Assembly (NCBI GenBank): GCA_002762705.1
Contig: PCVE01000108.1
Span: 1 to 36,485, forward strand
From: Candidatus Woesearchaeota archaeon CG11_big_fil_rev_8_21_14_0_20_43_8
GTDB taxonomy: Archaea > Nanobdellota > Nanobdellia > Woesearchaeales > CG08-08-20-14
Direction of reading: 5' to 3'
DNA length: 36,485 bases
Both the position numbers and the translations under genes were made by a program. Below are positions 1 to 34,526 of this stretch, one piece after another; within the stretch, counting starts at the first letter, position 1, and each line of letters opens with the position of its first letter. Under the pieces are notes generated by a model. The model did no database searches, was not told the DNA's origin, and saw nothing but the letters and a program-made list of their open reading frames with translations.

Positions 1-392
1 TCATAGAAATCCGGCTTGTGGACATCGCAGTATTTGCATTTATCCATCTCTTCTCCTTTCCATTTCACATGGTCGCATTCGACAGCGACGATCACAAGAT
101 TCTCACGAGACACCTGATGCTCCTGAAGAAGCCCGATGATACATTTTATATCGCAGCCTTTTGCGACGATACCGACACGTTCACCCCGCAACCGGCCAAG
201 AAAACCAGGAAGGCTCATCACACAGTGCTCATCAAACATCAGTTGCTCGATCTTTTTCTTGAGGTCGGTATCTCCTGAAGAAATATATATGGGTCGCGCA
301 CCTACATGTTCATCATGGCAGTAGCCAAGAAACACATCTATCTTCTTCTTGGCGAATAGATCGCCTGCGATTCTTCCTATCTCTTCATTCAT
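1..392 (-). CDS. FlxC-like / FrhB-FdhB-type Fe-S protein; C-terminus truncated by the window edge
   Basis: Absent from the ORF track because it has no stop in the window. My translation from ATG 392, which overlaps the mvhD stop: MNEEIGRIAGDLFAKKKIDVFLGY...RVGIVAKGCDIKCIIGLLQEHQVSRENLVIVAVEC...DKCKYCDVHKPDFY. The VGIVAKGCD...Q..RENLVI..V.C pattern and the position after hdrCBA-mvhD match FlxC of hdr-flx clusters. Confidence 0.75.
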   Translation of the reverse strand, partial: MNEEIGRIAGDLFAKKKIDVFLGYCHDEHVGARPIYISSGDTDLKKKIEQLMFDEHCVMSLPGFLGRLRGERVGIVAKGCDIKCIIGLLQEHQVSRENLVIVAVECDHVKWKGEEMDKCKYCDVHKPDFY

Positions 393-813
393 TCCCATCT
401 TCAAATATAATATTTCGCCCGACGCGATTCACAGTGTCAAGCACATCTTCAACCACGCTTTTCCACTTGGCCGCTTCTGAAGCCGATACCCAGCTCATCT
501 GGATCCGCTCTTCTTCTATCCCCATGAATTCCGTAAGTGTCTTGAATGTGAACATACGCCGTCTGGCGCGCATGTTGCCTTCGCTGTAATGACAATCTCC
601 CGGATGGCAGCCTGAAATCAATACTCCATCTGCACCTTCATACAATGCTTTTATGGCAAAGCGCGGACTCACACGACCAGAACACGGCACTTTGATGACA
701 CGGACGTTCTCAGGATATTTTACTCTCGAAGTGCCTGCAAGATCTGCACCTGCATAAGAGCACCACTTGCATAAGATCGCAGCGATTACCAGATCATCAT
801 TTCTTTTTGCCAT
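385..813 (-). CDS. mvhD: MvhD/FlxD-type [2Fe-2S] protein (methyl-viologen-reducing hydrogenase delta subunit family)
   Basis: Motifs CKWCSYAGADLAG, VPCSGRV and GADGVLISGCHPGDCHY; overlaps the end of hdrA. Confidence 0.93.
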   Translation of the reverse strand: MAKRNDDLVIAAILCKWCSYAGADLAGTSRVKYPENVRVIKVPCSGRVSPRFAIKALYEGADGVLISGCHPGDCHYSEGNMRARRRMFTFKTLTEFMGIEEERIQMSWVSASEAAKWKSVVEDVLDTVNRVGRNIIFEDGNE

Positions 814-2803
814 TCGTTTTTATCCCTGCATCATTTTTTCGTATCCCTTTTCCAAGGGCTTCAATCTCGACAAAAACATCTTCGGCGCTGAAACCAGATA
901 CATCGATCGCAGGCACAGGACACACTGATGAACACACTCCGCAGCCAGTGCACTTGCTTTCTATCACCTGTGCGACTCTACGTATCTTCTTTGTGTTCGG
1001 ATCTTTATAATCAACCATCTCGATTGCGCCGAACGGGCATGCCATGAAACAGTTCTCGCATCCGCTGCACAGGAATTGATTCACATGCGCGATTGTAGGT
1101 TCCAGTTCAAGCGAAGAGTGATTCAATATCGACATCGCCCGTGACGCAGCAGCTGAACCGCTTGCGACAGCATCTGGGATATCTTTTGGTCCCTGGCATG
1201 TGCCTGCTATGAACACTCCTCGTGTCGCAGTCTCGACCGGCGCGAGTTTAGGATGCAGTTCATTGAGCCAGCCATGAGTGTCTTTTGATAGGTTCAAGAC
1301 CCGCGCGATCTTCCTTGTCGACTTCGCCGGCACAAGACCATTCGCAAGCACGACCATATCAGCGTCCACTTTCACCTGATTGCCAGTCAATGTATCGGTG
1401 CCGAACACATGCAGCTTGCCATCGCGATCGAAGATACGCGACACACGACCGCGCAGATACAATGCTCCGGTCTCATCCTGGACTCTTTTTACGAATTCTT
1501 CATAATTCTTTCCAAAGGATCTGATGTCGATATAAAAAACATAGATGTCTGTACCCGGATGATGCTCATTCAAAAGAAGCACATGCTTCGCTGTATACAT
1601 GCAGCAGACACGCGAGCAATATGGATATCCTTTCTTCTCATCACGCGACCCGACACATTTTATGAATACGACGCTCTTTGGCACTTTTCCATCGCTTGGC
1701 CGCAGCACTTTTCCGTCAGTAGGACCGCCTGCGACAAGCATCCTCTCAAACTGAAGCGATGTGATGACATCAGGGATCTTTCCATAGCCATATTCACCAT
1801 ATGCAGAATCATCAAATATCTCTGAACCAGTCGCGACGATAACGACACCGAATGTTCTCTTGAAGATCTCATCTTTCTGATTGTACCTGATGCACTTCTT
1901 CGGACAGACTTTTGCGCATGCTCCACATTTGATGCATTTGTCATTGTCGATGCGCGGCACTTTCGGGACTGCCTGAGGGAAATCGAAATAGATGGCTTTG
2001 CGCTTCACAAGGCCCTGATTAAATGTCGATTCCGTCTTCACAGGACATACTTTCTCGCATGCTCCGCAGCCGATGCATAGTTCCTCATCCACATAACGTG
2101 TTTTCTTCCTGATCTTCGCATTGAACTCACCGACGTGTCCATCCAGCTCTTCGACTTCAGAGAATGTCAGCAGCTCGATATTCTCATGATCCCTTGTCTG
2201 CACCATCTTAGGTGTCAGTATGCACATAGAACAATCAAGTGTCGGGAATGTCTTATCGAACATAGCCATCTTGCCGCCGATAGTTGGCTCTTTCTCGACC
2301 ATGGTCACTTTGAATCCCGCATCTGCGAGATCGAGCGCGGCCTGGATCCCAGCTATGCCGCCACCGATCACAAGTGCTCTTTTTGTGACTTTGACAGATC
2401 TTTTCTTAAGCGGTCTTCCGTGTGATACTTTCGCGACAGCCATCCTGACGATATCTATGGCTTTCTCAGTCGCTTTGTCGATATCATCATGCACCCATGA
2501 GACCTGCTCACGGATGTTCGCGATCTCGACAGAATAATAATTGAGACCGTTCTTCTCTGCAAGCCCCCGAAAAGTCTTTTCATGAAGATTAGGAGAACAT
2601 GATGCGACAACGATCTTTGTCAGGTTATGTTTTTTTATCATGTCAGTTATCAATCCCTGGCCTTCGCTTGAACACATGTACATGCTTGTGGTTGAATAGA
2701 GCACTCCAGGAAAATCCGCTGCGGCTTTCGCTACATCTTCGACACGTACTCTCCCTGCGATATTATTTCCGCAGTGGCAGACAAAAACTCCTATCCGCAG
2801 CAT
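797..2803 (-). CDS. hdrA: Heterodisulfide reductase subunit A (FAD, Fe-S)
   Basis: N-terminal GVFVCHCG, ASCSP, FAD motif VIGGGIAG, KTFPTLDCSMC, CVGSRD...YCSRVCCMY, internal and C-terminal 2x[4Fe-4S] ferredoxin motifs, GTCQGPKDIP. Confidence 0.96.
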   Translation of the reverse strand: MLRIGVFVCHCGNNIAGRVRVEDVAKAAADFPGVLYSTTSMYMCSSEGQGLITDMIKKHNLTKIVVASCSPNLHEKTFRGLAEKNGLNYYSVEIANIREQVSWVHDDIDKATEKAIDIVRMAVAKVSHGRPLKKRSVKVTKRALVIGGGIAGIQAALDLADAGFKVTMVEKEPTIGGKMAMFDKTFPTLDCSMCILTPKMVQTRDHENIELLTFSEVEELDGHVGEFNAKIRKKTRYVDEELCIGCGACEKVCPVKTESTFNQGLVKRKAIYFDFPQAVPKVPRIDNDKCIKCGACAKVCPKKCIRYNQKDEIFKRTFGVVIVATGSEIFDDSAYGEYGYGKIPDVITSLQFERMLVAGGPTDGKVLRPSDGKVPKSVVFIKCVGSRDEKKGYPYCSRVCCMYTAKHVLLLNEHHPGTDIYVFYIDIRSFGKNYEEFVKRVQDETGALYLRGRVSRIFDRDGKLHVFGTDTLTGNQVKVDADMVVLANGLVPAKSTRKIARVLNLSKDTHGWLNELHPKLAPVETATRGVFIAGTCQGPKDIPDAVASGSAAASRAMSILNHSSLELEPTIAHVNQFLCSGCENCFMACPFGAIEMVDYKDPNTKKIRRVAQVIESKCTGCGVCSSVCPVPAIDVSGFSAEDVFVEIEALGKGIRKNDAGIKTNGKKK

Positions 2804-2805
2804 AT

Positions 2806-3702
2806 CTAGATCAACCTCTTTCTATCCAATAGTACTTGTGTATCGACAAAATGCGTATGCAGTCCAAGTTTTCTATGATCGATCCCAAGCGCGAGACCAA
2901 GCAATTGCGAGAAATAAAACACAGGCATATCCAGATCCATCCTGAGCTCTTTTCCGATCTCTTTTTGCTTCATATCAAGATTTGAATGGCATAACGGGCA
3001 GGCAACAACAACGCATTCAGCGCCTGATTTTTTAGCGTCTTCTAATATCTTGCTTGTAAGTTTCAATACAATCTCTGGTTTTGATGCAAAATACGAAGCC
3101 CCGCAGCATGTCACCTTATAATTCCAGTCGACTGTTTTCATGCCAAGGGTTTCGCAGAAATCATCCATCAGTTGCGGGTTTTCTGGTCTCTCATCAAACT
3201 CCATGACATCTTCTGGCCGTGTGAGAAGACAGCCATAATAGCATGCAGCTTTTAACCCGAGTTTTTTCTTAAGCAAGTTCTGCCACTTCTCGGGTTTTAT
3301 ATCTTTCATGAGCACTTCCAGCGGATGTCGGCATCTGATATTGCCATCATACCTATGCCCAGTTATTTTATACATCTCTTTTCTTATGTCTTCACGCTCG
3401 CATTCTTTATTCGTGACCTTGTGACGCTGAAAACACGCAGCGCATGGAATCGCTATCGTACCCATCCCCATTTCCTGTGTCTTTGCGAAATTGTGATAAG
3501 GAAGAGCGATGGCAAGATTTTTATCGGTCGCATGCGCGCTTGTGGCTCCACAGCAGATCCAGCTAGGGATTTCTATAAGTTCTATTCCAAGGGCAGAGAA
3601 ACTAAGTTCTATCGAGTCGCCGAATTCTTTGGTGGTCCCTTTTAGGGTGCATCCTGGGTAATACGCAATTTTTATTGTTTGATCTGTTTCATCTCTTGTC
3701 AT
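2806..3702 (-). CDS. hdrB: Heterodisulfide reductase subunit B
   Basis: Two CCG domains (YYPGC...ICCG...CAAC; YYGC...TCCG...CPLC); lies between hdrC and hdrA. Confidence 0.95.
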   Translation of the reverse strand: MTRDETDQTIKIAYYPGCTLKGTTKEFGDSIELSFSALGIELIEIPSWICCGATSAHATDKNLAIALPYHNFAKTQEMGMGTIAIPCAACFQRHKVTNKECEREDIRKEMYKITGHRYDGNIRCRHPLEVLMKDIKPEKWQNLLKKKLGLKAACYYGCLLTRPEDVMEFDERPENPQLMDDFCETLGMKTVDWNYKVTCCGASYFASKPEIVLKLTSKILEDAKKSGAECVVVACPLCHSNLDMKQKEIGKELRMDLDMPVFYFSQLLGLALGIDHRKLGLHTHFVDTQVLLDRKRLI

Positions 3703-4264
3703 TTTTCTCTACTGTGTTCTTGAATATCTTTTTCATGTCTTTTTTTGCAATGTTGCTTGGGATGAATTTGAGTTTTCCATGTACTAACATCTCAGGCGCC
3801 TTTGTTGTGTCTCTTAGTAGATGTCCTGAAAGCACATTATTCATGCCGACAAGCTCCACTTCAAAGAGCCGCCCATGTCGCCTGATATTATTTAGGAATA
3901 TCTCATTGAAAAGCGCGATATTTCTCTCGCTTCTGTCTTTTGGAGTCATCTTCTTCTTAATAGAGAATGATTTCAATCCATCCATTAGTTCGCTTATCTT
4001 CACTTTCCTTGGACATCTCGCAGAACATGTGCCGCATGCGACGCAGTTCCAATATGCGTTTGAGGAAAGGGCTTCATCTATGGCCCCTATCTGCACCAAA
4101 CGAATCATCCGTTGCGGAGGATTATCCATAAGATGAGCTACAGGACATCCGGCTGTACATTTGCCGCATTGATAGCATCCAGAGACATCAAGCCCATCGA
4201 TAAAACCTTCTATCTCCTTTATTTCGCTTTTCCTGTTTTTGCCAAGTACTTTTTCCATCCCCAA
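3689..4264 (-). CDS. hdrC: Heterodisulfide reductase subunit C
   Basis: CYQCGKCTAGCP and WNCVACGTCSARCP; the ATG at 4258 is an alternative start to the TTG at 4264. Confidence 0.94.
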   Translation of the reverse strand: MGMEKVLGKNRKSEIKEIEGFIDGLDVSGCYQCGKCTAGCPVAHLMDNPPQRMIRLVQIGAIDEALSSNAYWNCVACGTCSARCPRKVKISELMDGLKSFSIKKKMTPKDRSERNIALFNEIFLNNIRRHGRLFEVELVGMNNVLSGHLLRDTTKAPEMLVHGKLKFIPSNIAKKDMKKIFKNTVEKNDKR

Positions 4265-4494
4265 GGGGAAAAATAGCTAATGTGCTATATATATTTGATG
4301 CATATGGTTTGATTTTTACTGACTATGCTTATCCGAATCTAAACTGATTATTCTTGCTTTTTTGTTTACTTTACAGTACTATCTTTTTGGATTTTGACAT
4401 TCTATCAAGCTAATTTTTTTTATCTTAGATAGAAAAACATATAATATAGAATAAACTCAAAAGCATTTAATCACATTCATGGAGGGTGTTTATC

Positions 4495-6153
4495 ATGGCA
4501 AAATCAAAGAGAAAAGTCAAATCGAAAGCTAATCAGCGAAAATCATCAAAAACTAAACAAGAAAAGTCATCACATCCAAAATCAGATGATAAACCGACAA
4601 AGAGATTCTCAAACATGCGAAAATTCGTGATATTCTGTGTCTTTGTCGCTGTGATATTTCTTATATTTTTCCTTGGAAATGGGAAGCAGGGTCAGACCCC
4701 TGCAACAAATCTGGTCCCATCCGGAGAGATAACGGCAGGGGATACAGTTTCAGTCAAATATGTCGGTCGACTGATGAATGGCAGCATATTCGACACAAAT
4801 GATGAAGTGGCAGCAAAGAATGCCGGATTTGAGATACAACATACCGACCCGTTTGTATTTGAGATCGGAAGCGATATGGTCGTTCCGGGATTTGAAGATG
4901 CAGTGCTCAGCCTAAAGAATGGTGAAAGAAAGAAATTTGTCATCAAGGCAAGTGATGCCTATGGTATGCCGGATCCTACTTTGATAATGGATGTCCCAAG
5001 AACACAAGAGTTCTCCAGATTCCAGACCCTAAACAGGACCCAGAATATTCCGACTGATTTCTTCAAAGAATTATTCACCGTAGAACCAGAGATCGGAAAA
5101 GTGGTCTCAATCGAAAGCATGCCTTGGGAATATGAAGTCGTGGCTGTGAAAGCTGATGAAGTCAGCATAAAATCAAAACCAGTCCAGGGTCAGATTGTAG
5201 AGGTGCAAGGATCAGCATGGAACGCGACAGTCACAGCGATTGACGATAAGACAGTGACTTTAAGAGCAGATCCAGTCGATGGGACAACATTAGCGACACC
5301 TTTTGGCGACGCGAAACTCTCAATCACAAGCGACATGATCACGATAACGACAAACCCCGTTATCGGCGACGTAGTCACAACGATGTACTGGTCAGGTGTT
5401 GTGAATGCTATGAACAGCACATCGATAACCATAGATCTTAATCATCCACTGGCAGGAAAAGATCTTGAATTCGAGATTGAAGTGACAGATATTGAGAAAG
5501 CTGATTCGGCAGCGACAACAGAGACACTGGTTGCAGGGGCTACCGAAACAACGAAGACCAATAAGCCTAAAGTCCTCATGTTCGTCATGAGTTTCTGTCC
5601 ATATGGGCAGCAGATGATGGCTGTGATGAAGCCGGTATTTGAACTGTTTGGTGACAAAGTCGATATCGAACCGCATTTTGTCATCTATGGAAGCGCAAGC
5701 TACAAGGGAAAGGAGAGCAGCTATTGCATGGGTGATCTATGTTCGATGCATGGCTTATATGAACTCGAAGAAGACATACGTCAGGCCTGCATCTGGAACG
5801 ACGACCATAAAGCATATTGGGATTATTCTGAATGCATCAGCCAGAAATGTTCAAAAGCGAACCTTGACAGCTGCTGGAAATCTTGTGCTGATGATTTTGA
5901 CATAGATACTGCTGAAGTGGAGAAATGCCAAAAAGACGAAGGAAAGACCATGATGGGCCTTGAGAAGATGCTCAATTCCCAATATGGTGTGCAAGGATCA
6001 CCTACTGTCTTCATAAACGGTGAGACATTCAAGGGGCAGAGGACTCCTGAAGACATGAAGAAGGCGATCTGCAGCACGTTCGCAGATGTTCCATCCGAAT
6101 GCAGTCAGACACTCGGGACAGGAGCGACCACTGCTGCAGGAGATTGCGGTTAG
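4495..6153 (+). CDS. Membrane-anchored FKBP/SlyD-type peptidyl-prolyl isomerase fused to a C-terminal thioredoxin/DsbA-fold domain
   Basis: GGAGGG RBS at 4481 and ATG at 4495. Basic N-terminus plus one TM helix; FKBP motifs (VKYVGRLMNGSIFDTN, VPGFEDAV, AYG, DLNHPLAGKDLEFEIEV); C-terminal FVMSFCPYG and GVQGSPTVFING. Confidence 0.85.
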   Translation: MAKSKRKVKSKANQRKSSKTKQEKSSHPKSDDKPTKRFSNMRKFVIFCVFVAVIFLIFFLGNGKQGQTPATNLVPSGEITAGDTVSVKYVGRLMNGSIFDTNDEVAAKNAGFEIQHTDPFVFEIGSDMVVPGFEDAVLSLKNGERKKFVIKASDAYGMPDPTLIMDVPRTQEFSRFQTLNRTQNIPTDFFKELFTVEPEIGKVVSIESMPWEYEVVAVKADEVSIKSKPVQGQIVEVQGSAWNATVTAIDDKTVTLRADPVDGTTLATPFGDAKLSITSDMITITTNPVIGDVVTTMYWSGVVNAMNSTSITIDLNHPLAGKDLEFEIEVTDIEKADSAATTETLVAGATETTKTNKPKVLMFVMSFCPYGQQMMAVMKPVFELFGDKVDIEPHFVIYGSASYKGKESSYCMGDLCSMHGLYELEEDIRQACIWNDDHKAYWDYSECISQKCSKANLDSCWKSCADDFDIDTAEVEKCQKDEGKTMMGLEKMLNSQYGVQGSPTVFINGETFKGQRTPEDMKKAICSTFADVPSECSQTLGTGATTAAGDCG

Positions 6154-6187: not shown

Positions 6188-6913
6188 CTATTTTGTCGCA
6201 AGGAAATACATCGATGGCGATTCTTTTGTATAATGGCAGAGCCCTGCGCCATAATAATGATGCTTTGAGAATCCTGCCGCATCTAATGCATGACTGAATT
6301 CTTCTCTAGTGTACATGGCAAAGGTGTTTTCATCTGTAAGTCTGACAATAGTTTCCTTTTCCATATCATGTATGATGCATCTCTGCTTATGTGTCAAGAT
6401 CTTTCCGTCAAGCGTATTTGTCTCGTGCACAATGACTTGAAGATTGTCCTGCGTACATTCATGCATCCTGTCCTTGTATTCTTTCTCTGGCCAGTGGTTT
6501 GGGGCATTGAATACCAGTCGCCCGTATGGCCTCAAGGCTAGATACATGTGCCTCAATCCATCAACCAATCTGTCTTCATCCAGTAGATAATTGATGGCCT
6601 GACGGACCATGATCCCATCGAATTCATTGTCTGCTGAAAACTCACACATCGATGCACAGGTGAATTCAAGATCGTATTTTTCTAGTTTTTTTCTTGCCAC
6701 TGAAAGCATCCCTAGCTCTGCATCCATGCAGGTGATATTCCAAAATCCCTTCTTTAGCAAGTGCGCAGTCACTTCACCTGTCCCGCAGCACAGATCAAGC
6801 AGTCTCTCGTCTCGATTGAAAGAATATTGTGTTAGTTTGAGAAATGTGTCTGACTGCTGGAACCTATTGTATATCAGGTCATAATATTCCGGAAATTCGT
6901 CATAGCAACTCAT
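6188..6913 (-). CDS. Class I SAM-dependent methyltransferase
   Basis: Motif I LLDLCCGTG and late motif LRPYGRLVF; ATGA overlap with the upstream gene. Confidence 0.9.
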   Translation of the reverse strand: MSCYDEFPEYYDLIYNRFQQSDTFLKLTQYSFNRDERLLDLCCGTGEVTAHLLKKGFWNITCMDAELGMLSVARKKLEKYDLEFTCASMCEFSADNEFDGIMVRQAINYLLDEDRLVDGLRHMYLALRPYGRLVFNAPNHWPEKEYKDRMHECTQDNLQVIVHETNTLDGKILTHKQRCIIHDMEKETIVRLTDENTFAMYTREEFSHALDAAGFSKHHYYGAGLCHYTKESPSMYFLATK

Positions 6914-7746
6914 TCTCCTGCACCCCTTATATGATTGAAGATATCTCCAATCCGGTTGCCAGGAACGACGATGCCATGATTTTTCAGCCGTACTGGTCCT
7001 GCTTCGCCCGCAAGTGTTTTCATTATCTCCTCGATGTCTTCTTTTGTTCCTGGAGAATAGTCGAATCTGGTTTCTTTCTCGAATGGCATATCGATATGCG
7101 AATGAAGGATATGGTTCAATTCAGGGAAATTTCTAAACATAACTGATGCCACATTCGCATTCAATGATGCCTTCTTTCCTTCGCTTGTGCAATAGATGAT
7201 TCTTTTTTTGTGGTCTACTTTGTCGACATGGACAATATCTCTTGTATCAATGTTCTTCTTATTGCTGCCTCTCGCTGTTATCAGGAAACTTTCGCTGCCT
7301 GTGCGTTCTGCATAGAAGCCGAATTGTTTTTCAGAACCCTCGTAATATAGAAGGAACAATCCTTTTTTTTCAAATAATCCAATATTTTGCTTGAATGAAT
7401 CAGTCATCAATGTCTCTATCGAGTCAACATCATTCTGTTCAGTGCGGTAATGGCGGTCTGATTTTCTTAATTCTATCAATCCAATTACCTGCTTTGGATC
7501 AACAAGTCTTCTGATTCCTTTTTCAGGCGTGATTGCAAAGATGCCATCAATCCCTTTCACAATAGTGAGGTTTGATTTATGTTCTATCCCTACCTTGTAT
7601 ATCTCATCGATATCAATCGATGCGAATGTTCCATGTCGTTCTAATACATAGGCATTGAACGTCCTATTTTCATCGGGACTTTGCCATCCATCATGCAAAT
7701 CAACTCCAGCAGGCATTCTTTGTTTCAGATAATCATATAATATCAT
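6910..7746 (-). CDS. Atypical class II aldolase/adducin-fold protein with an extra N-terminal domain
   Basis: FLITARG, metal ligands ILHSH and LKNHG. I prefer the start at 7746 (GGGGTGA RBS, ATGA overlap) over 7770. Confidence 0.75.
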   Translation of the reverse strand: MILYDYLKQRMPAGVDLHDGWQSPDENRTFNAYVLERHGTFASIDIDEIYKVGIEHKSNLTIVKGIDGIFAITPEKGIRRLVDPKQVIGLIELRKSDRHYRTEQNDVDSIETLMTDSFKQNIGLFEKKGLFLLYYEGSEKQFGFYAERTGSESFLITARGSNKKNIDTRDIVHVDKVDHKKRIIYCTSEGKKASLNANVASVMFRNFPELNHILHSHIDMPFEKETRFDYSPGTKEDIEEIMKTLAGEAGPVRLKNHGIVVPGNRIGDIFNHIRGAGE

Positions 7747-8864
7747 AGTGTCACCCCTTTTTGTCGCCATATCAATCTCCCAAAAGCATACTTCAGATTT
7801 TCAATACCCAGTCTAATCGTTTCAGGATCATTAGCTGCAAAATTCATACGGATATTGTTCCTGCTTTTTCCATCATGATGTGAAAAAGAATCCTGTTCAA
7901 GTTCGACGCCCACATGCTTTGCATAACTGAAAAATTCCATCTGATCAACATCTGCAGGCAGTGTCAGCATAAGGAAAATACCACCTTCTGGCTTTGTGTA
8001 TTCAACGCCGTACATAGACAAATGAAGATTATCCAGGGAAGCAACACAGGTGTCACGTCGCTCTTTGAATTCTTTTTTCAATAGATCTAGATATCGTTCG
8101 TGCACTAAAAGCTCTTTTGCAACAATCTGATTCAATGTTGATGTAAATAGGTCTGCAGTTATTTTTTCCGAACGTATTTTTCTGATTATATCTTTCTTTG
8201 CCATGATGTAACCAATCCTTAGTCCAGGAAGGGTGATTTTTGAGAGCGATCCGACAAAGATTGTCCTATCTGGTATCCTGTCAAATATCCTGTTTGGCAT
8301 TTTATTGTCATAATGCAAGAGGTCATAGGGATTATCTTCGATAAGGATATTATCGTCATGGTCCATCATTTCGGCAATATCATCTTTTTGTTCTTCTGCA
8401 TATGAGAATCCAGACGGGTTATGGAAATTCGACGTGAGGTACACCAGATTATGCCTTTCTGGATGACTTGGACAGACAAACGGCGGCCAGATATGGTTTT
8501 TGAAATCAGGACTTTCCTTGTAATGGAATTTTGCTGTATACCGGGTATCCAATCCCTTAAGCAGCCTGATGGCACCAAAGTATGCGGGTTCCTGTATCCA
8601 TTTTGTCCGTGTCTTCACTGAATCAAAAGCCAATGACAAAGCCTGCTGGGATGATGATGTTATCAGTATATTCTCAATGCTGACATCAAATCCCATCTTT
8701 TCTATGATTGTTTCACGAAGCTCTGGAAGACCTTGGATCATCCCATACTGCGAATAAAGATCAACTCTCTCACTGGCTTTGCATATGGCTTCTTTTGCGA
8801 TCTCTTCAAGTTCGGGCGTGAGTCCGATGTGTCCTCCGCAGAAACGTATCATCTGCTCTGCCAT
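7743..8864 (-). CDS. PLP-dependent class I/II aminotransferase (LysN/Aro8/MocR-like subgroup)
   Basis: QYG..QGLPELRE, SSQQAL, NFHNPSG, EDNPY and the PLP-Lys motif GSLSKITLPGLRIGY. Confidence 0.92.
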   Translation of the reverse strand: MAEQMIRFCGGHIGLTPELEEIAKEAICKASERVDLYSQYGMIQGLPELRETIIEKMGFDVSIENILITSSSQQALSLAFDSVKTRTKWIQEPAYFGAIRLLKGLDTRYTAKFHYKESPDFKNHIWPPFVCPSHPERHNLVYLTSNFHNPSGFSYAEEQKDDIAEMMDHDDNILIEDNPYDLLHYDNKMPNRIFDRIPDRTIFVGSLSKITLPGLRIGYIMAKKDIIRKIRSEKITADLFTSTLNQIVAKELLVHERYLDLLKKEFKERRDTCVASLDNLHLSMYGVEYTKPEGGIFLMLTLPADVDQMEFFSYAKHVGVELEQDSFSHHDGKSRNNIRMNFAANDPETIRLGIENLKYAFGRLIWRQKGVTL

Positions 8865-10105
8865 CTGTGCTTCATCTCCATTGCATAGTTCTCAAGGTGC
8901 TCACCAAGTCCGTGCGTGATGTGATCCTTTGAATTGAATGTTGAATAGTTTCGATATGTATCTATGAAATAACCGATGTGTTTTCCCACTCGGATATCTG
9001 AAAGATCATTTGCGATAACCAGATCGCATCCATTTTTTTGTAATGAATCATACGCTATTTCTCTGAGTTTCTCTGGACTTTTTTTGCTTTCAAGCTTGAA
9101 TCCGACTTTGTACATTTTTTTGCCTGTCTCTTCGGTGATTTTGTCGACCTCTTTTATGATCTTCTTTGTTGGGACAAGCCGCACATTCATTTCGTCACCA
9201 GATCTCACTTTCTCGTCGATCACTTTGTCAGGAGCATAATCCAGGACTGCTGCATTGAAGATGCTTATCCTGTAATTCTTATCTTTACGTCTGAGTTCAT
9301 CTTCTACTGCCTGCATCATCTCATCAGGGCCTTTTACATCAGTCACATCAAGATATCCGGGGGGATGCACAGTGCCGGGGCCATATGTCACTTTCACATT
9401 TGCGCCGCGCATATAGAGATCTTTTGCAATACGGATGCCAAGATCGCCTGATGATGTGTTTTTGATCTTTCTGACAGCATCGACATTTGCTTCGTTTGGT
9501 CCGACAGTCATCAACACATCGACCCCTGATAGCGGCCCATTGGCAAGCTGTCTTGTTGTTGCTGCGACAATCTCATCTAATTTTGCGAGCTTCGCTTTTC
9601 CTTCAGAAAAACGCGGTTCGATAATGTGGATATTGTAATCTTCATTGTTTCTGAATTCATTTAGGTTCTTCTGCAGGATAGGATTCTCATAAAGCGACAT
9701 GTGCATTGTCGGGGCAAGCATGATCGGAATACCCCTGCCCATGGCGCTTGCCACTGTTGTCGTCAATGGATTGTCTGCGATGCCTGCTGCGATCTTGTTT
9801 ATCGTGTTCAATGTGGCTGGCGCCACAAGCACTGCGTCTTCAAGGTCAATGTGCTGCGCAGTGCCATCAAGCGTCGTCACCACTTTATTTCCTGTCGCCC
9901 ATTCCATTGTCAAAGGTGTGATGAACTTCTGGGCTGCATCACTCATCACCGCACGGACATCAGCTCCGTATCTTCTTAGCATCCTTGCGACTTTTGGCAT
10001 CTCGATACTTGCAATCCCGCCACTGAGACACATTGTTATCTTCTTTCCTTTCAGATAATCCGCTATCGCATCTACCTGTCTATCTTCTAGTTCTTTCATA
10101 TCCAT
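8849..10105 (-). CDS. coaBC: CoaBC-family bifunctional phosphopantothenoylcysteine decarboxylase/ligase (archaeal type)
   Basis: HFCD domain (SGGIAS, APATLNTINKIAAGIADN, APTMH, PRFSEGKAK) plus CoaB/DFP domain (DAVRKIKNTSSG, NAAVLDY, VGFKLE, DLVIANDL); GAGGTG RBS. Confidence 0.9.
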   Translation of the reverse strand: MDMKELEDRQVDAIADYLKGKKITMCLSGGIASIEMPKVARMLRRYGADVRAVMSDAAQKFITPLTMEWATGNKVVTTLDGTAQHIDLEDAVLVAPATLNTINKIAAGIADNPLTTTVASAMGRGIPIMLAPTMHMSLYENPILQKNLNEFRNNEDYNIHIIEPRFSEGKAKLAKLDEIVAATTRQLANGPLSGVDVLMTVGPNEANVDAVRKIKNTSSGDLGIRIAKDLYMRGANVKVTYGPGTVHPPGYLDVTDVKGPDEMMQAVEDELRRKDKNYRISIFNAAVLDYAPDKVIDEKVRSGDEMNVRLVPTKKIIKEVDKITEETGKKMYKVGFKLESKKSPEKLREIAYDSLQKNGCDLVIANDLSDIRVGKHIGYFIDTYRNYSTFNSKDHITHGLGEHLENYAMEMKHRWQSR

Positions 10106-10163
10106 CGTCGCACCTCGTATTCTTCATAGCTATCGCTATGTTCTGTCTTAGATGGCTATAACC

Positions 10164-11003
10164 CTATAATCTCAGCAATCTCTTCGCGTTCTCGTAGTAG
10201 ACTTTATTTTTGTCTTCTGTGCTGTAGCCCATTGATTCTATATGTTCTATCGAATCTTCTATGGATTGGATAGGAAAATCTGATGCGAATAATACTTGCG
10301 AAGGATCACATTCGTGCGCTAATATCTTCAGCGCTTTTCTTGTGACTCTTATCTCTTTTTCTGTGTCGTCTTTTCCTGTCTTCCAAAGGCCAGAGACATC
10401 TGTGTATATGTGCGGATGTTTATTCAGCACATCCCTTGCGCTTTTTGTGAATGGCTGTCCATAATGGCAGATGACAAGATCAAGCGATGGGAATCTCTTC
10501 GCGACTTCACCTATGTGAGATGGGTGTGTCTGATAATGGAGATATTGTCCGGGATTATCTTCATCGATATCCCATGATTCAGGGAAATCACCTTCACCAG
10601 TGGTCTCTCCAGAGTGGAAAGCGACTGGTATCCCAAGTTCGCTTGCTAGTCGATATACCAGCGACATCTTCTCTTCATGAGGATAGAAGTCTTGATATCC
10701 TGGATAAAGTTTGATGCCAGATATCGAATCCTTGATACTGCGGAGTTCCTGGATACCAGCATCCATTGATCTCTCTACGTCAAGGCCGCCGAACATGAGA
10801 AATCTGTCGCTTTCTGAGATCAGATCAAGCATCTTCATGTTGCCGCTTCCCCTGTTCTGGTGCGGGAAGAATGTCGCCATGACCACTGCTTTCTCTATTG
10901 AATATCTGCTCATGACACTGACTAGGTATTCGGGTGAAGCATCATCTGTATACAGTCCTTCCTGCGTGTGCCTTGTCAAGTGTGTGTGAAAGTCGATCTT
11001 CAT
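10164..11003 (-). CDS. Amidohydrolase_2-family TIM-barrel metalloenzyme
   Basis: IDFHTH, GIKLYPGY, FHSG, CHYG, TDVSG and FASDFP metal-ligand motifs. Confidence 0.9.
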   Translation of the reverse strand: MKIDFHTHLTRHTQEGLYTDDASPEYLVSVMSRYSIEKAVVMATFFPHQNRGSGNMKMLDLISESDRFLMFGGLDVERSMDAGIQELRSIKDSISGIKLYPGYQDFYPHEEKMSLVYRLASELGIPVAFHSGETTGEGDFPESWDIDEDNPGQYLHYQTHPSHIGEVAKRFPSLDLVICHYGQPFTKSARDVLNKHPHIYTDVSGLWKTGKDDTEKEIRVTRKALKILAHECDPSQVLFASDFPIQSIEDSIEHIESMGYSTEDKNKVYYENAKRLLRL

Positions 11004-11029
11004 CTTGATATGTGGGGAGGCACAGGGCA

Positions 11030-11088
11030 GTATAAAGCTATTCTTTAAATCTTTAAAGATGTTTAAATTTAAAGCAAATTTATATATG
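11030..11088. promoter_or_regulatory. Divergent promoter region with back-to-back TATA boxes and a palindromic TTTAAA array
   Basis: Minus-strand TTTATA at about 11037-11032; plus-strand TTTATATA at 11079-11086. Each lies 22-28 nt from its ATG, implying leaderless transcripts. Palindromes ATCTTTAAAGAT (11049-11060) and TTTAAATTTAAA (11062-11073). Confidence 0.6.
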
Positions 11089-11108
11089 CAACCGCCTTTC
11101 CTATCGAT

Positions 11109-11588
11109 ATGTCAGACAAGGTGATGGTTCAGGCGGCAGTCATGGTGTTGTTACGTGAAGATGCCGGCCAGATAGAGACATATCTCACCAAACGTCCAGC
11201 CACATTCAGGACATATCCTGGAAGATATGTCTTTCCAGGTGGCACGATGGAAATGAATGACTCTGATCATCTTGATTGTGCGATAAGAGAGGCTTTAGAA
11301 GAAGTAGGTATCTGTCTGAAAAGAGCAGATGTCTTTTTTTTATCTGAGAATCATGTCGATCATTATCTTGATGATATCCAGTATCATGTATTCTCATATG
11401 CTGCGAAGATGCCTGATGACCAAGTGATCACATTGAATCCTGATGAAGTCGAAGAGGGTCTTTGGTTACGTCCGAATGATTGTTTACAAAAAGAAAAAGA
11501 GAGCAAGATGAGTCTGACAAAAATCACGCGACGGAATTTGCGTATGCTTTTGGACTATAAGACTCTTGATGAGGTCTTCAGAAAATGA
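11109..11588 (+). CDS. Nudix hydrolase, CoA-pyrophosphatase-like
   Basis: Nudix box GGTMEMNDSDHLDCAIREALEEVGI, preceded by LTKRPATFRTYPGRYVFPGG, which resembles the LTxR...R.H.G...FPGG motif of CoA pyrophosphatases. Confidence 0.85.
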   Translation: MSDKVMVQAAVMVLLREDAGQIETYLTKRPATFRTYPGRYVFPGGTMEMNDSDHLDCAIREALEEVGICLKRADVFFLSENHVDHYLDDIQYHVFSYAAKMPDDQVITLNPDEVEEGLWLRPNDCLQKEKESKMSLTKITRRNLRMLLDYKTLDEVFRK

Positions 11589-12511
11589 AGACCACAACAC
11601 GAAAACTGCAGGAGATCTCTGGTTCATTGCTAGTTACACTTCCATCGGAATGGGCGCAGAGATATAGGCTCAAGAAAGGATCAGAGGTGATGATCACCCA
11701 GAATGACGATACAACCTTGAAGATAAGCAAGGAATTTTTGTATGATGAGATCAAAGGTGAGAGTATCATAAAATACGATTCACTGCTTCTCAGACGTTTT
11801 TTCCGTGAATATCTCTCTTCTGTCGATTTTGTTGTCGTGCATTTCCAGGAGTGTGATACGCCAAAAGAAGAGATCCGGAGATTCTATGATTTCATACGTG
11901 ATTCTATGCTGAATGTCGAAGTGATCGAGGAGACAAAAGAGAAGATGGTCCTTCAGATATTCCGGATGAATGAGGTCACGATCGGGTCATGCATCAGGCG
12001 TATGTTCTATCTGGTGAAGAATATGATTGATATCCTGACATCGAAAGGCGATGCATCACAGATAATCGATCTTGATAAGACAGTCGCGAAATTCTATTAT
12101 ATGCTTGTCAAGCAGACAAGGATATTCCTTCAGCAGGGCAGGTACACAAAAGCAGAGGAACTCACTGTGATCGAAGCCATGGATCATCGGATGGTGGCTG
12201 AGAAGATAGAACGCATCGGTGACCTGGTAAAAGAGCTTGCGATTACATCAGATGGCAAGAGATTTGACAAGACGCTTCTTGATTTTTTCCTTTTTGTGGT
12301 GTCTCGGCTGGATTCTGCCTTTTCAGCCTTTATAAAGCATGATTTCGACTCGGCCCTCAGGATATGGGATGAGCAGAGATCGGTCTTTTCAAGGTTTTCA
12401 AGGCTTAAAGAGCAATATGCCAAAAAAAAGGATATGAAAAGCCTTGAGCTCTGCTCATATCTGAAAAATGTCTATGAACATACTAGGGATATCGCAAATA
12501 TCGTCAGATAG
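11585..12511 (+). CDS. phoU: Archaeal phosphate-uptake regulator (N-terminal AbrB domain plus PhoU repeats)
   Basis: RKLQEISGSLLVTLPSEWA AbrB motif; PhoU motif IERIGDL; ATGA overlap with the Nudix gene. Confidence 0.85.
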   Translation: MKTTTRKLQEISGSLLVTLPSEWAQRYRLKKGSEVMITQNDDTTLKISKEFLYDEIKGESIIKYDSLLLRRFFREYLSSVDFVVVHFQECDTPKEEIRRFYDFIRDSMLNVEVIEETKEKMVLQIFRMNEVTIGSCIRRMFYLVKNMIDILTSKGDASQIIDLDKTVAKFYYMLVKQTRIFLQQGRYTKAEELTVIEAMDHRMVAEKIERIGDLVKELAITSDGKRFDKTLLDFFLFVVSRLDSAFSAFIKHDFDSALRIWDEQRSVFSRFSRLKEQYAKKKDMKSLELCSYLKNVYEHTRDIANIVR

Positions 12512-12514
12512 AAA

Positions 12515-12529
12515 CGAAATGTTTTTAAA
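12515..12529 (+). promoter_or_regulatory. BRE/TATA of the r-protein cluster
   Basis: CGAAA-TG-TTTTTAAA, with a GAGGT RBS at about 12579 before ATG 12592. Confidence 0.55.
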
Positions 12530-14555: not shown

Positions 14556-15068
14556 TCAACAGAATTTGATATCTTTGACTTCAAGTGTCTGTGAACAACT
14601 GTATAACTTCCCTTCGATGTTCATACTAATTTTCGGTGTTATCTCAAGAGTGCTGATCCTCCCGAGTCTTTCCTGATCGAATTCCTGAGAAAATTGTCTT
14701 GCTTCATTTGCTGTCAACGCGATCCCTTCAAGGTCGAAGAAATCAGTCTCATAATCTTTTCCAATCATCACAGCTCTTATTCCATCAATAGTTATGCTGC
14801 CTTTATTTATCAGTTTCATCTTCAATGTCTTTTTTGTCTGAATGACGCATAGATCGGTCGCTGTCTCGTTGGCCATCTCGATAGCCACGAATTTCTCGCA
14901 CTTTATCTTCGCTTCTTCCTGTTTTTTTTCGATATCTTCCTGGAGCTTTGAATAGCTCGATCCCCAATTCATTATCACTGCGCCAAGCGCCATCGCAAAG
15001 AAGATCAATAGCACTGTCGCTATCATTGGTGATACTCCTTTTGGACCGATGGTCTTTCTCATACGCAC
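14556..15068 (-). CDS. Archaeal type IV pilin-like protein (class III signal peptide)
   Basis: PKG|VSPMIATVLLIFFAMALGAVIMNWG; NKGS motif; paired Cys. Confidence 0.88.
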   Translation of the reverse strand: MRMRKTIGPKGVSPMIATVLLIFFAMALGAVIMNWGSSYSKLQEDIEKKQEEAKIKCEKFVAIEMANETATDLCVIQTKKTLKMKLINKGSITIDGIRAVMIGKDYETDFFDLEGIALTANEARQFSQEFDQERLGRISTLEITPKISMNIEGKLYSCSQTLEVKDIKFC

Positions 15069-15071
15069 GCC

Positions 15072-16388
15072 TCATTCATTGATAGCAAGATTTTCTATAT
15101 TGATTAGGAGGAAATCGACACCGCCTTCAAGTGTCATGACAAGATCATATTCATAATGATTCCCTGCTGCTGAGCTGTTCATATGCATTATGACAACTGC
15201 AGCATCTGGATCAGTCCTTAGCTCTGATAATTTCACATAGCCTTTTCCATATGATGAGACCGGATCATTGTTTATGCTGAATGAGAAATTCTTCCCAGTC
15301 AGTTCCATGCCCGTGCTTGTGTAGTTCATCTTCTTTATTATGTCTGATGCATTGATATATTGCTGGATGCTTTCAGTTCCGACAGTCTTTCTGAATTCCA
15401 TTGCGAGATAAGTGTTGTTCACGTGATAGGTGTTGTCATCCATCTCGATGTCATCGATAGTGAATATGCCGCCACCTGTAGTGATGAATGGTTTAAGAAG
15501 ACCGGATTCAGATCGTGCACGCGTGGTGTTCCTTAGCAGAAGTCTCCAGTCTTTGTTGTTCTCGCTCATGAAGAAATCAGTATATGTCTTTCCATTCTCT
15601 GTCGTCTTTGTGATCATGAAATTATAATCTTTGTTTGATGTGTAGTTCGCTTTCCAATTCGTCGTACCTCTCTCATACGTCTGTATGGTCCCATATCCGC
15701 CACTATAATTCAACATTATACCTGCGACTATATTGGCACTTGAGACGGCAAGCGTGCTGTTCGCCCATCCGACGACAACAAGATCATCGGTCGTGACCGC
15801 GCCTGTATTGAACGTGAATCGCAAGGTGGTGTCCTCTTTTTCTGTGATGTTCTTATGTGAAAGGATATAATTATCATCCAGATTTCTGCAGCCACCAGTC
15901 GCGCTGTATTTCCCATTTATGATGAAATCATTTCCTGCGCAATTATCATATCTATACCAGGTGTTCGTAGACAGCGTCGAAGTGCTGAAATCTTCAGAGA
16001 AAGACTGAATTCCATCTTCAAATGTGATGAAACTATCGTCCCCTATTATCAGGTCACCGACAAAGACTTTTGTCCTTGGTTCAAGTATCTTCGCTTTTGA
16101 TTCCATCTTCCATTTTATCTGATTGTCCTGTATCGTCATATCGCCTTTCTTGATCTCGATCGGGATGACTCGTTGTGCGCCAGCGCCTTCAGATTGGACA
16201 TCTTTTATCTGAGAATCGATGTTCAGGAACATATCCTTTGTCTTTGTGAATATCGATTTATCCTTCACTTTTTCTAATAATGGTATCCCTGTATTCAATA
16301 ATAAAACTATTATGACTACTGTTATCAAGATGTATGATATCGCAGAAAGCCAGATCTGGCCCTTTCTAGGTGCACGCATAGATATCAT
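15072..16388 (-). CDS. Large pilin-like/adhesin protein (class III signal peptide)
   Basis: RKG|QIWLSAISYILITVVIIVLL; many N-X-S/T sequons; beta-rich body. The start may be the second Met (MRAPRKG). Confidence 0.8.
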   Translation of the reverse strand: MISMRAPRKGQIWLSAISYILITVVIIVLLLNTGIPLLEKVKDKSIFTKTKDMFLNIDSQIKDVQSEGAGAQRVIPIEIKKGDMTIQDNQIKWKMESKAKILEPRTKVFVGDLIIGDDSFITFEDGIQSFSEDFSTSTLSTNTWYRYDNCAGNDFIINGKYSATGGCRNLDDNYILSHKNITEKEDTTLRFTFNTGAVTTDDLVVVGWANSTLAVSSANIVAGIMLNYSGGYGTIQTYERGTTNWKANYTSNKDYNFMITKTTENGKTYTDFFMSENNKDWRLLLRNTTRARSESGLLKPFITTGGGIFTIDDIEMDDNTYHVNNTYLAMEFRKTVGTESIQQYINASDIIKKMNYTSTGMELTGKNFSFSINNDPVSSYGKGYVKLSELRTDPDAAVVIMHMNSSAAGNHYEYDLVMTLEGGVDFLLINIENLAINE

Positions 16389-16944
16389 CCTCCACTAGAT
16401 TCATGTTCCTGCAAAGTTGGGGACCAGTCCCTGCTTCGATATTGACATACGGCGCGAATGTCACCTGGACAACATCTTCGCCTAGCCCTGTGAAGTTGAA
16501 GCTTGTTGTCCCTTTTTTCACGCCACCAGCAGATATGCTGAATGTCTTTTTATCATCTACATAGCTTGTGTCATTTATTCCTATCAAAGCCACCATTATC
16601 CCGGCTATCGAGTCAGATCCTTTGTTCTCAAGAGTGTATTCCAGGACACCTGCTGTCGCGCTAGTGTTCTTGAAACAGAGCCGTTTTTCTCCAGCGATTG
16701 TCTTGACGCTCAAAGCGATAGACATTTGGCACGTGACTCCCAATTGTCCTTCGAGCTCTGCTTTTTCGGTTTGGCTTTCGACATTGCCCACACCCCATCT
16801 CATGACCATGGCGCCGATTGTGATGGTTATTGCAACAAGCAATATCGCGCTGATAAGCTGCGAGACACCCCTATTTTTAAGTTTGATAGAATTCTTTCTA
16901 ACCTTATTTTCCGGACTTAGGCCCAGATTCCTCTTTTTATACAT
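16366..16944 (-). CDS. Archaeal type IV pilin-like protein (class III signal peptide)
   Basis: NRG|VSQLISAILLVAITITIGAMVMRWG; ENKGS motif; paralogous to 14556-15068. ATG 16944 lies about 28 nt from the TATA box. Confidence 0.87.
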   Translation of the reverse strand: MYKKRNLGLSPENKVRKNSIKLKNRGVSQLISAILLVAITITIGAMVMRWGVGNVESQTEKAELEGQLGVTCQMSIALSVKTIAGEKRLCFKNTSATAGVLEYTLENKGSDSIAGIMVALIGINDTSYVDDKKTFSISAGGVKKGTTSFNFTGLGEDVVQVTFAPYVNIEAGTGPQLCRNMNLVEDDIYACT

Positions 16945-16971
16945 AATCAATATCTCTTTTATATAGAGCAC

Positions 16972-32723: not shown

Positions 32724-34526
32724 TCAATTATTGACCATTATCTCGACATTATTGCCGAAGAGACTCTTAAGGTCCTCAAATATCTTGCTCTTTAGCATTA
32801 TCTTCTCTTGGAACTTAGCCTCGCCCATGTATCTCTCGAACTCTTCCATATCGCTCTTATCGATCTTGTCAAGTCCGCCCGCTTCGGTGACTTTCGCTTT
32901 CCTTATCTCTTTTTCACCTTCATTGGCATCGTATAAGATAAATGCGTCGCCTTTCGCGAACATGATTATCTCAGCATACTTGTCGCCGAACTTGACCTTT
33001 ATCTTGCTTTTCTCGATCTCATTCGCACGTTTCCTCTGCATATATTCGACCATGAACTTGATGTAATTGTGGGCGTCTTTCCTTATGTTCTCGACGTCTT
33101 GTTTTGTGATGGTGCCTTTTGGGTAATCCACTTTCGCTTTCAGGATCTGTTTTAGCACACGCATCGTCTTGTCTGGGAAGATGCCAGCATTGATTATCTT
33201 TTCTTGGAAGACATTTGGAAGATCTTCTGCTGACACTTTTTTCACGCCTTCAAGTTTCAGGACATCTCTAGATGCTGCGACGACATTATCGTTTGCATGC
33301 AGCACAGTCTCTTCAAGTTTCTTCTTCTCGATCTCTCCATAGAGCTCTTTGATCCTCTTCAGATATCTCTCGACATTCTTAATGAGACGTTCTGCTTTTG
33401 AGCCGTCTAATGATTTGACCTCGTCATATTCATAGCTTTTCCATAGCTGGACCTGCTCATCGATTATGTCTCCGTACTCTTTCTCGAGCATCTTCTCCTT
33501 GTCGACAAAGACCTCTTTTATAAGTCTCGCTGTCTCTCTTGGTGTGGTCGGATTGATGCCATACATCATGAGAGCGGCCTGCGATGGATTGAGGATAGCA
33601 TAATATGCATCTTCTACACCAGCAGAGAGGATCTTGTTCTTCGCTCTCTCAAGGAATTGTTCTCCAGAATTCTGGAACATGTCGATAGATTCAGCTGATG
33701 GTTTTATCTTTCCCATCTTTAAGAGCTGCTTCCAAGGCATGTACATTCCCCGGTCATAGAACGGGATGCCATCTCTTAGGAATGTGAAGATGACTGGGTT
33801 CGCATCTTTTATCGAATCCCAAAAATCCGTGAGCAAATATGTCTGGACATGCAATTTTATCTTGACGCCAGTGATCTCTGCCGCTTTGTAGGCCATATCA
33901 TACATGATCGCAGTGAGCTTGTCCTTGAGCTCGCCACGGCTCATACGTTTGACATCTGTATCATCGATGACCACGAACGCGTCGATATCGCTCTTCTCAT
34001 GGCCGTCGCCCCTGAAATGTGATCCGGCACAGACATAACAGACGATGTATTTCTCGAACTTGTCAAGGCTCATCTTCTTGTGCACTTCTGATAGTTTTAT
34101 GCCTGAGATAGTGCCCCTGTCATAGACTGGCTGTGACATGGCGATCTGGTTCAATTTGTCGTATTTACCGTCATGACATTCTCCCCATATCTCTGAGACT
34201 ATCCATGTCTGGACTATCATGTTTGGATCCACTTCCTTTGCTAAGGATGCGATTATCGCGCCTAGCTTGTCGGAAAGCTCTTGCTTTGACATCTTTTGTG
34301 AATCGGAATCATCGACGACGACAAGCACATTGATATCCTCTTTCTTGTCTTTTGTCGGTGGGAGAAGTGTGACACCAAGTATGTATCTGTCGAATTTCTC
34401 AAGCACATTCTTTGAGAATAGGTCAAGTTTATCTTTCAGCTCTTTTAGTTCTGGCGGGAATTCTGGAAGCTTCTGGCTTGCCATGAAATCCTTCTTTTTC
34501 TCTTGTTTCTTTCCCTTGCTTGTCAT
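32724..34526 (-). CDS. Protein with tandem minimal nucleotidyltransferase domains plus a HEPN-like helical domain
   Basis: Second NTase intact (AGSHFRG...SDIDAFVVIDD); first copy degenerate (DINVLVVVDD); HEPN-like DAYYAILNPSQAALMMYG. Confidence 0.8.
   Translation of the reverse strand: MTSKGKKQEKKKDFMASQKLPEFPPELKELKDKLDLFSKNVLEKFDRYILGVTLLPPTKDKKEDINVLVVVDDSDSQKMSKQELSDKLGAIIASLAKEVDPNMIVQTWIVSEIWGECHDGKYDKLNQIAMSQPVYDRGTISGIKLSEVHKKMSLDKFEKYIVCYVCAGSHFRGDGHEKSDIDAFVVIDDTDVKRMSRGELKDKLTAIMYDMAYKAAEITGVKIKLHVQTYLLTDFWDSIKDANPVIFTFLRDGIPFYDRGMYMPWKQLLKMGKIKPSAESIDMFQNSGEQFLERAKNKILSAGVEDAYYAILNPSQAALMMYGINPTTPRETARLIKEVFVDKEKMLEKEYGDIIDEQVQLWKSYEYDEVKSLDGSKAERLIKNVERYLKRIKELYGEIEKKKLEETVLHANDNVVAASRDVLKLEGVKKVSAEDLPNVFQEKIINAGIFPDKTMRVLKQILKAKVDYPKGTITKQDVENIRKDAHNYIKFMVEYMQRKRANEIEKSKIKVKFGDKYAEIIMFAKGDAFILYDANEGEKEIRKAKVTEAGGLDKIDKSDMEEFERYMGEAKFQEKIMLKSKIFEDLKSLFGNNVEIMVNN

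Follow-up and report, generated by a model that had tools for sequence, protein, structure and literature searches.

A recurrent, likely co-regulated coaBC gene cluster of small-genome archaea with a possible role in coenzyme A precursor supply

Based on analysis of a 36,485-nucleotide stretch of DNA from Candidatus Woesearchaeota archaeon CG11_big_fil_rev_8_21_14_0_20_43_8 (assembly GCA_002762705.1, contig PCVE01000108.1) and comparisons to related loci, we describe a gene cluster built around coaBC that is real, recurrent, likely co-regulated and undescribed in the literature searched, and that is best filed under coenzyme A (CoA) precursor supply, with a chemistry that we infer. The stretch, here called the window, is a complete 36.5-kb contig of a 1.84 Mb genome that is 79% complete. 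We tentatively propose, as a plausible reading rather than a probable one, that in small-genome archaea this cluster provides CoaBC with 4'-phosphopantothenate that is recovered from scavenged or damaged CoA fragments rather than made through a pantothenate or pantoate kinase. Feeding CoaBC would be the simplest job of the cluster, since the downstream enzymes are present and the entry step is missing. More doubtful is a bolder form of the proposal, in which these archaea would enter CoA synthesis through a dedicated regulon without any pantothenate or pantoate kinase, and the CoaB-aldolase family, shared with Candidate Phyla Radiation (CPR) bacteria and giant phages, would be an unrecognised enzyme of this route, possibly giving altered CoA.

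The CoaBC of the window (8849..10105, minus strand, 418 amino acids (aa), archaeal-type CoaC plus CoaB) is predicted to be a working CoA-synthesis enzyme that likely acts on 4'-phosphopantothenate. It has the domain order of the archaeal bifunctional PPCS-PPCDC family (CoaBC/Dfp, TIGR00521), and its whole-protein score of 288.6 bits is above the cut-off of 219.7. The CoaC His and PxM(N/H) motifs and the CoaB DxVRxxxNxSSG, AAVxD, K, GFK and AND motifs, which we take to have catalytic and nucleotide-binding roles, are all present, and the residues concerned are kept (His85, PxMH and E168/K172 in CoaC; D209, R212, N216, D289, K299, K315, F336, K337 and N366 in CoaB). Another 145-147 sequences, mostly archaeal, share with it the CoaC motifs (PxMH and EEGKAK-type) and those for nucleotide binding in CoaB. 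The protein differs from the archaeal majority at T204N, E206A and M222L, and the cluster proteins are marked by GGIA in place of GSxA, the loss of Glu206 and an invariant His376.

A reading of the window made earlier from the letters alone (the sequence-only reading) had allowed that this CoaBC might group with ordinary archaeal CoaBC; it falls in a clade of its own instead. In quick, midpoint-rooted trees of 87 out of 209 CoaC rows and 96 out of 216 CoaB rows, the cluster proteins all lie on one side of a branch with a support of 99 in the Shimodaira-Hasegawa-like approximate likelihood ratio test (SH-aLRT), separate from ordinary archaeal CoaBC as well as from the CoaBC that pan operons encode in the same order. 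The cluster enzyme further departs from ordinary archaeal CoaBC in frequently being split or joined to an aldolase domain, in coming with a regulator of its own and, in the loci seen, in never adjoining PoK, PPS or PanB. The bacterial-type coaBC of the pan operons (G015, G037, G023, G009, G048, G317) likewise occurs with CoaD/CoaE, but belongs to another CoaC clade, carries a PxMN motif and adjoins panB, panD, PoK/PPS or panC/PanK-II. We note that cluster-clade CoaC occurs without any partner genes in a Myxococcota record (L060:7998-9185) and on a short metagenome contig (L166).

Upstream of coaBC at a spacing of 58 nucleotides (nt) lies a metal hydrolase of the Amidohydrolase_2 family (10164..11003, 279 aa; PF04909, E 2e-26), and downstream follow a fold-type I pyridoxal phosphate (PLP) aminotransferase (7743..8864, 373 aa; PF00155), a CoaB C-terminal remnant joined to a class II aldolase-fold domain (6910..7746, 278 aa; PF00596) and a class I S-adenosylmethionine (SAM) methyltransferase (6188..6913, 241 aa; domain scan). 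The co-orientation of the five genes and their overlaps, as claimed earlier, are borne out, with every open reading frame (ORF) on the minus strand: coaBC shares 16 nt with the aminotransferase gene, or ATGA should the latter start at the in-frame ATG at 8852, and ATGA overlaps follow at 7746-7743 and 6913-6910, each with a purine-rich, ribosome-site-like stretch before it. The five genes stand, whereas the unit does not end at 11003 but runs on to 12511, taking in a predicted 38-bp operator/divergent-promoter-like motif (11034..11071, no strand assigned; alignment of intergenic regions) and, on the plus strand, genes for a divergent Nudix hydrolase (11109..11588, 159 aa) and an AbrB/MazE-PhoU regulator-like protein (11585..12511, 308 aa), both assigned by domain scan and themselves joined by an ATGA overlap. 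The gene order is no assembly artefact, since contigs of other runs spanning 6474-7906 and 7907-12523 (X4) and 6572-8476 (X5) match without a single letter difference. Archaeal ribosomal genes are present on the contig, and the operon genes show no sign of recent transfer, because their GC content and its third-position value (GC3) are within or slightly under the contig range.

Recurrence was assessed in 160 loci fetched with a CoaBC alignment, used after a single-protein query against genome contigs gave no match, together with seven loci from relatives. Thirty loci were tabulated; after merging of split or duplicate entries and removal of two outliers (L060 of Myxococcota and the 1.9-kb L166), 24 records remained besides the window, in which partner counts are lower bounds as several contigs are short. 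The part common to all clusters is a CoaB-fold ligase, and regulator, amidohydrolase and CoaBC make up the core most often seen: the AbrB-PhoU regulator gene is at the locus in 20 records, the amidohydrolase in 18 and the class II aldolase domain, often fused to CoaB, in 17. The methyltransferase (5/24) and aminotransferase (3/24) are not core, because they are missing from most cluster copies, and GNAT (G002, G369; replacing the methyltransferase in both) and PanD (one record) are rarer still. Conserved linkage, on which the sequence-only reading depended, is confirmed: all four partners turn up in other genomes next to CoaB or CoaC or joined to them, but all five window genes occur together in none of the 24. 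Cluster content ranges from amidohydrolase plus CoaBC alone (G081, G238 and G367, 93-99% complete), through CoaBC plus a CoaB*-aldolase-methyltransferase fusion (G271) and an aminotransferase plus such a fusion (G008, where CoaC and the amidohydrolase were not found), to G369, where regulator, Nudix, PanD, CoaB-aldolase, GNAT and CoaD-CoaE form a single run. A conserved gene for a protein of about 190 aa directly precedes CoaB*-aldolase-methyltransferase in three records (L316:4771-5352, L314:1001-1663, L083:7985-8614); it has no Pfam match, gives a weak ferritin-like lead and was not found in the window's own genome.

Among the 160 plus seven loci, amidohydrolase matches are confined to the window's clade, and many other loci lie by PoK, PPS or PanB. 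Across 401 genomes of the order, the amidohydrolase has 14 matches, 11 of them in clusters, against 66 for CoaB and 18 for the aminotransferase; three of the best four aminotransferase matches outside the window lie upstream of CoaB*-aldolase fusions. An aminotransferase orthologue at L337:6382-10366 is instead found behind DAHP synthase-like and SAM synthetase genes. These order-wide tallies take in five or six genomes flagged as unpublished, on which no claim rests singly. The ten best CoaBC rows include the window's own protein and eight CoaC-CoaB-aldolase fusions with 46-57% identity. The records with the closest clusters are mostly titled Woesearchaeota, Pacearchaeota or Nanoarchaeia; three bear a Methanosarcinales title, and two of these are identical to genomes assigned to the order of the window.

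The cluster is likely a co-regulated unit, judging from the regulator gene and the motif. The 38-bp motif, located between regulator gene and cluster, consists of spaced TTTAWA repeats and a ATCTTTAAAGAT palindrome, and is probably an operator bound by the regulator; part of it may represent TATA boxes. It is present in 20 of 20 intergenic regions aligned, with leave-one-out scores of 20-48 bits, and a matrix built without the window detects a single strong site in its genome, at 11034-11071 (43 bits, the next scoring 19.7). Sites outside the training set were detected in G004 upstream of coaBC, which is unlinked there from the regulator and aldolase genes on another contig, and at the separated regulator of G012, while none was found at G055, G238, G164 or either G271 locus. 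Regulator matches at E<=1e-46 occur in 7 of 151 genomes, all of them cluster genomes, with distant matches in five more. At L341:3352-5642, a tandem pair of an X-aldolase gene (a type described below) and a degenerate paralogue stands behind regulator and motif; coaBC is found there on a different contig, likewise under this motif. A scan for bacterial promoters and terminators remained at chance level (22 vs 16.6 +/- 4.1).

As the sequence-only reading had stated, the window contains no further CoA gene (33 proteins scanned). Its genome has the late steps elsewhere, while the entry enzymes were not found. A bacterial-type coaD adjoins coaE on contig C1, coaE too being of bacterial type; in total coaD has two copies and coaE-like genes number three (contigs C1, C47, C115 and C106), and PHP and MBL-fold hydrolase genes come after the coaD on C47. 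Four POR-family matches, three of them strong, suggest a demand for CoA by CoA-using oxidoreductases. Queries from relatives for PanB, PanD, PanC, PoK, PPS and PanK-II gave no match in this genome, nor did models of CoaX, PanK-I and the archaeal DPCK (PF04019). In the order sample CoaD is present in 16 of 17 cluster genomes, compared to 100 of 401 genomes overall. PPS (PF02006) was found in none of 18 cluster genomes, whereas three of four pan-operon controls matched, and CoaX (type III pantothenate kinase) was likewise found in none of the 18; neither was found even in cluster genomes that are 98-99% complete. No PanK-I match exceeded the cut-off in five cluster genomes, two weak P-loop matches aside, and a PF03630 search was uninformative, as it matched no control.

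The known routes to 4'-phosphopantothenate are PanK (types I-III) and PoK/PPS. Archaea use the PoK/PPS pathway to CoA and Nanoarchaeota are described without PoK and PPS (PMC6650551), and PanK occurs in three types, with no uptake of phosphorylated intermediates known in E. coli (PMC12570885). The roughly two dozen genomes considered here keep CoaBC and mostly CoaD/CoaE, have a gap at the entry step and bring a constant group of uncharacterised enzymes together under a common regulator and motif, and the cluster hence names concrete candidates for a pathway hole and bears on how host-dependent archaea obtain CoA. The earlier suggestion of an undescribed system stands, in that no description of a CoaBC-aldolase linkage or of a Woesearchaeota/DPANN CoA supply cluster was found in open-access text, supplements excluded.

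Sequence comparisons and predicted structures indicate what the partner enzymes could contribute. The amidohydrolase (model predicted local distance difference test (pLDDT) score 86) has candidate metal and active-site residues in an HxH motif, Lys98, His130, His180 and Asp242, besides a clade motif YFPH; this ligand set, which we presume to be that of a two-metal site, suggests that two metals are held. The best NCBIfam model for the Nudix hydrolase is a CoA pyrophosphatase (NF007980), although its 38.8 bits are far below the cut-off of 134. The aminotransferase keeps the catalytic PLP lysine (Lys209) and is closest to broad-substrate archaeal and LysN-type enzymes, and the nearest solved relatives of the methyltransferase are small-molecule N-methyltransferases. 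Elsewhere the methyltransferase is part of CoaB*-aldolase-methyltransferase fusions; its four long relatives all carry an aldolase domain and three also CoaB.

The aldolase gene, which most likely starts at 7746, was rightly labelled in the sequence-only reading as regards its aldolase domain, but that domain is preceded by about 95 residues that align with the C-terminal part of CoaB, so that the gene is the remnant of a CoaB-aldolase fusion. Its closest relatives are CoaB*-aldolase proteins (P0122-P0129), and CoaB-aldolase fusions without CoaC exist. The domain model (pLDDT 90) has the class II fold and shares it, together with the three-His metal site, with FucA, AraD, MtnB, YgbL/OtnC, NovR and TqaM; the triad His215/His217/His257 is kept, and the three His are invariant in ten of ten aligned domains. 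It differs from class II aldolases in its fusion to CoaB, its 13-19% identity and the replacement of the FucA SSE motif, which holds the catalytic Glu, by SLN and of GN by GF, whereas the CoaBC-fused relatives retain SSE/SSD and GN.

Taken together, we propose that the Nudix hydrolase would cut CoA-type molecules down to the 4'-phosphopantetheine level, upon which the amidohydrolase would hydrolyse the cysteamine amide to give 4'-phosphopantothenate, a step that could be useful where the thiol end has been oxidised or alkylated or is foreign. CoaB, using cytidine triphosphate (CTP) and Cys, and CoaC, using flavin mononucleotide (FMN), would then rebuild 4'-phosphopantetheine, and CoaD and CoaE would complete CoA. 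Aminotransferase, aldolase and methyltransferase would represent an optional add-on derived from the CoaB*-aldolase-methyltransferase fusion, most likely acting on the CoaB product or on a released amine or thiol fragment, which is the weakest step of the proposal. ThnR of the thienamycin system is a Nudix enzyme. A like logic, with CoA being cut, the cysteamine amide hydrolysed and the amine N-acetylated, is described for ThnR/ThnH/ThnT/ThnF (PMC6097109); ThnT acts on a carbapenem-bound group, whereas the cluster has CoaBC and a TIM-barrel amidohydrolase, and the two are likened by logic, not by sequence.

Several observations weigh against such recycling. Intact 4'-phosphopantetheine could enter CoaD directly, and the loop would therefore pay only for a damaged or foreign substrate. 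We know of no amidohydrolase with cysteamine-amide specificity, and the fold search with the window enzyme gave no more than 13-20% identity, to lactonases and decarboxylases of Amidohydro_2 type and to proteins of unknown function. The amidohydrolase was not found in six of the 24 records (G004, G055, G008, G164, G271, G369) nor CoaC in three (G008, G164, G369), Nudix recurs in just two (G369, G164), and amidohydrolase, methyltransferase and CoaBC are found in none of 45 viral loci with an X-aldolase gene. About 19 genomes with the fused CoaD-CoaE type are without any CoaB. As for the missing kinase, the PanK-II query matched a type II-like gene in one of 18 cluster genomes (G002), and a P-loop kinase of G081 could be a divergent PanK. 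The PPS and kinase searches left out G008, G055, G164, G271 and G369, PoK was searched in the window's genome and the fetched loci only, the cluster genomes searched are 71-99% complete, and related genomes are not independent.

Among the alternatives, the product of the cluster might be an analogue of CoA or pantetheine, or some other metabolite of the N-acyl-cysteamine kind, that aldolase, aminotransferase and methyltransferase (or GNAT) would build or tailor, much as the sequence-only reading had envisaged; we regard this as unlikely. The separate CoaB and CoaC clades with their clade-specific changes would fit it, as would the likeness of the methyltransferase to N-methyltransferases and its exchange for GNAT, the gene content of G008, and the aldolase-type gene being common and solitary in large phages. 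A second coaBC for housekeeping, however, was not found: the window's genome has one PF02441 and one PF04127 match, both in the window gene. Conserved linkage and a separate clade speak for the earlier idea, and a sole intact coaBC against it, as do the strong co-occurrence of cluster and CoaD and the minimal clusters of amidohydrolase and CoaBC; with the active-site residues kept and coaD, coaE and CoA-using oxidoreductases in the genome, a separate product with a non-canonical acyl part or a methylation is so far not supported. Still less probable is a new de novo route, in which a second CoaB-fold domain would link beta-alanine to a phosphopantoate-like acid, itself the work of aminotransferase, aldolase domain and methyltransferase. 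PanD within the G369 cluster, the failure to find entry enzymes, the X-aldolase N-terminal part, which is CoaB-like by eye, and the many records with two CoaB-fold domains (CoaBC or CoaB* plus an X-aldolase protein, or, in G271, CoaBC plus CoaB*-aldolase-methyltransferase), matching the two amide bonds of pantetheine, agree with it; yet the second CoaB of the window is a mere remnant, no cluster has a reductase, methyltransferase and aminotransferase are scarce, and the former looks N-directed.

The aldolase-fold domain could also be a flavin-free, metal-dependent decarboxylase that replaces CoaC on the CoaB product, an idea compatible with the recycling proposal to which we assign marginally less weight than to the de novo route. 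It would explain why every one of the 24 other records has at least one of CoaC and an aldolase domain, with a CoaB-fused aldolase in each of the three in which CoaC was not found, and why CoaB-aldolase fusions without CoaC exist, and the fold includes the decarboxylases NovR, TqaM, Mlr6791 and YgbL. Such an activity would nevertheless be redundant in the CoaC-CoaB-aldolase triple fusions that make up eight of the best ten CoaBC rows, and decarboxylating a peptidyl-cysteine without oxidation is chemically hard. Finally, a housekeeping coaBC with chance neighbours, the kinase being lost from incomplete assemblies, is very improbable: the sole copy, its intact motifs, the incomplete genome and the PanK-II-like gene of G002 would permit it, but the recurrence of the partners largely refutes it, and fusions and a common regulator and motif across many families, as well as PPS and CoaX not being found in the most complete genomes, argue in the same direction.

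Beyond the archaea, aldolase-domain genes of a type here termed X-aldolase are found in 45 viral loci. The 136 neighbours scanned include a CoaD-CoaE and a CoaD-like protein, three Nudix proteins, one NAPRTase and one energy-coupling factor (ECF) S component; the aldolase-type gene of L227 is followed by CoaD-CoaE, and a CoaD-like gene is near that of L233. When viral contigs were searched with an alignment of CoaB*-aldolase proteins, the 18 pattern matches included no relatives. Unlike the phage and CPR CoaB-aldolase fusion families, those of the cluster stand together with CoaC, an amidohydrolase and a regulator. This setting links the family to CoA genes and represents the first strong context found for these widespread fusions. 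A dedicated methyltransferase partner was not seen for the X-aldolase type, which may be a different subfamily (none in the 45 viral loci by profile), and a constant association of fused CoaD-CoaE with X-aldolase was rejected (1 of 75 genomes, G004). In four loci CoaD-CoaE or CoaD is fused to or followed by a domain of about 200 aa with an HD-like motif and no Pfam match (L205:4998-6863, L206:4730-6484, L211:3192-4283, L209:4384-5040), possibly a phosphohydrolase of CoA salvage.

Elsewhere in the window, a run of mvhD, hdrA, hdrB and hdrC-like genes (385-4264, minus strand; FlpD, Fer4/FAD, CCG and Fer4 domains) neighbours the operon; a functional link was dropped, as none was noticed in the ORF lists of other cluster loci, in which no profile search was made. 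Between the two, at 4486-6153 on the plus strand, an FKBP-type isomerase with a membrane anchor is fused to a thioredoxin/DsbA-like domain rich in cysteine; paralogues occur on contigs C128, C88 and C24 of the same genome. Further features are a 438-aa unknown ORF flanked by two pilin-like genes (14556-16971, minus strand), a GlcD/CCG fusion oxidoreductase (25512-28253) and a 600-aa nucleotidyltransferase with a weak HEPN match (32724-34526, minus strand).

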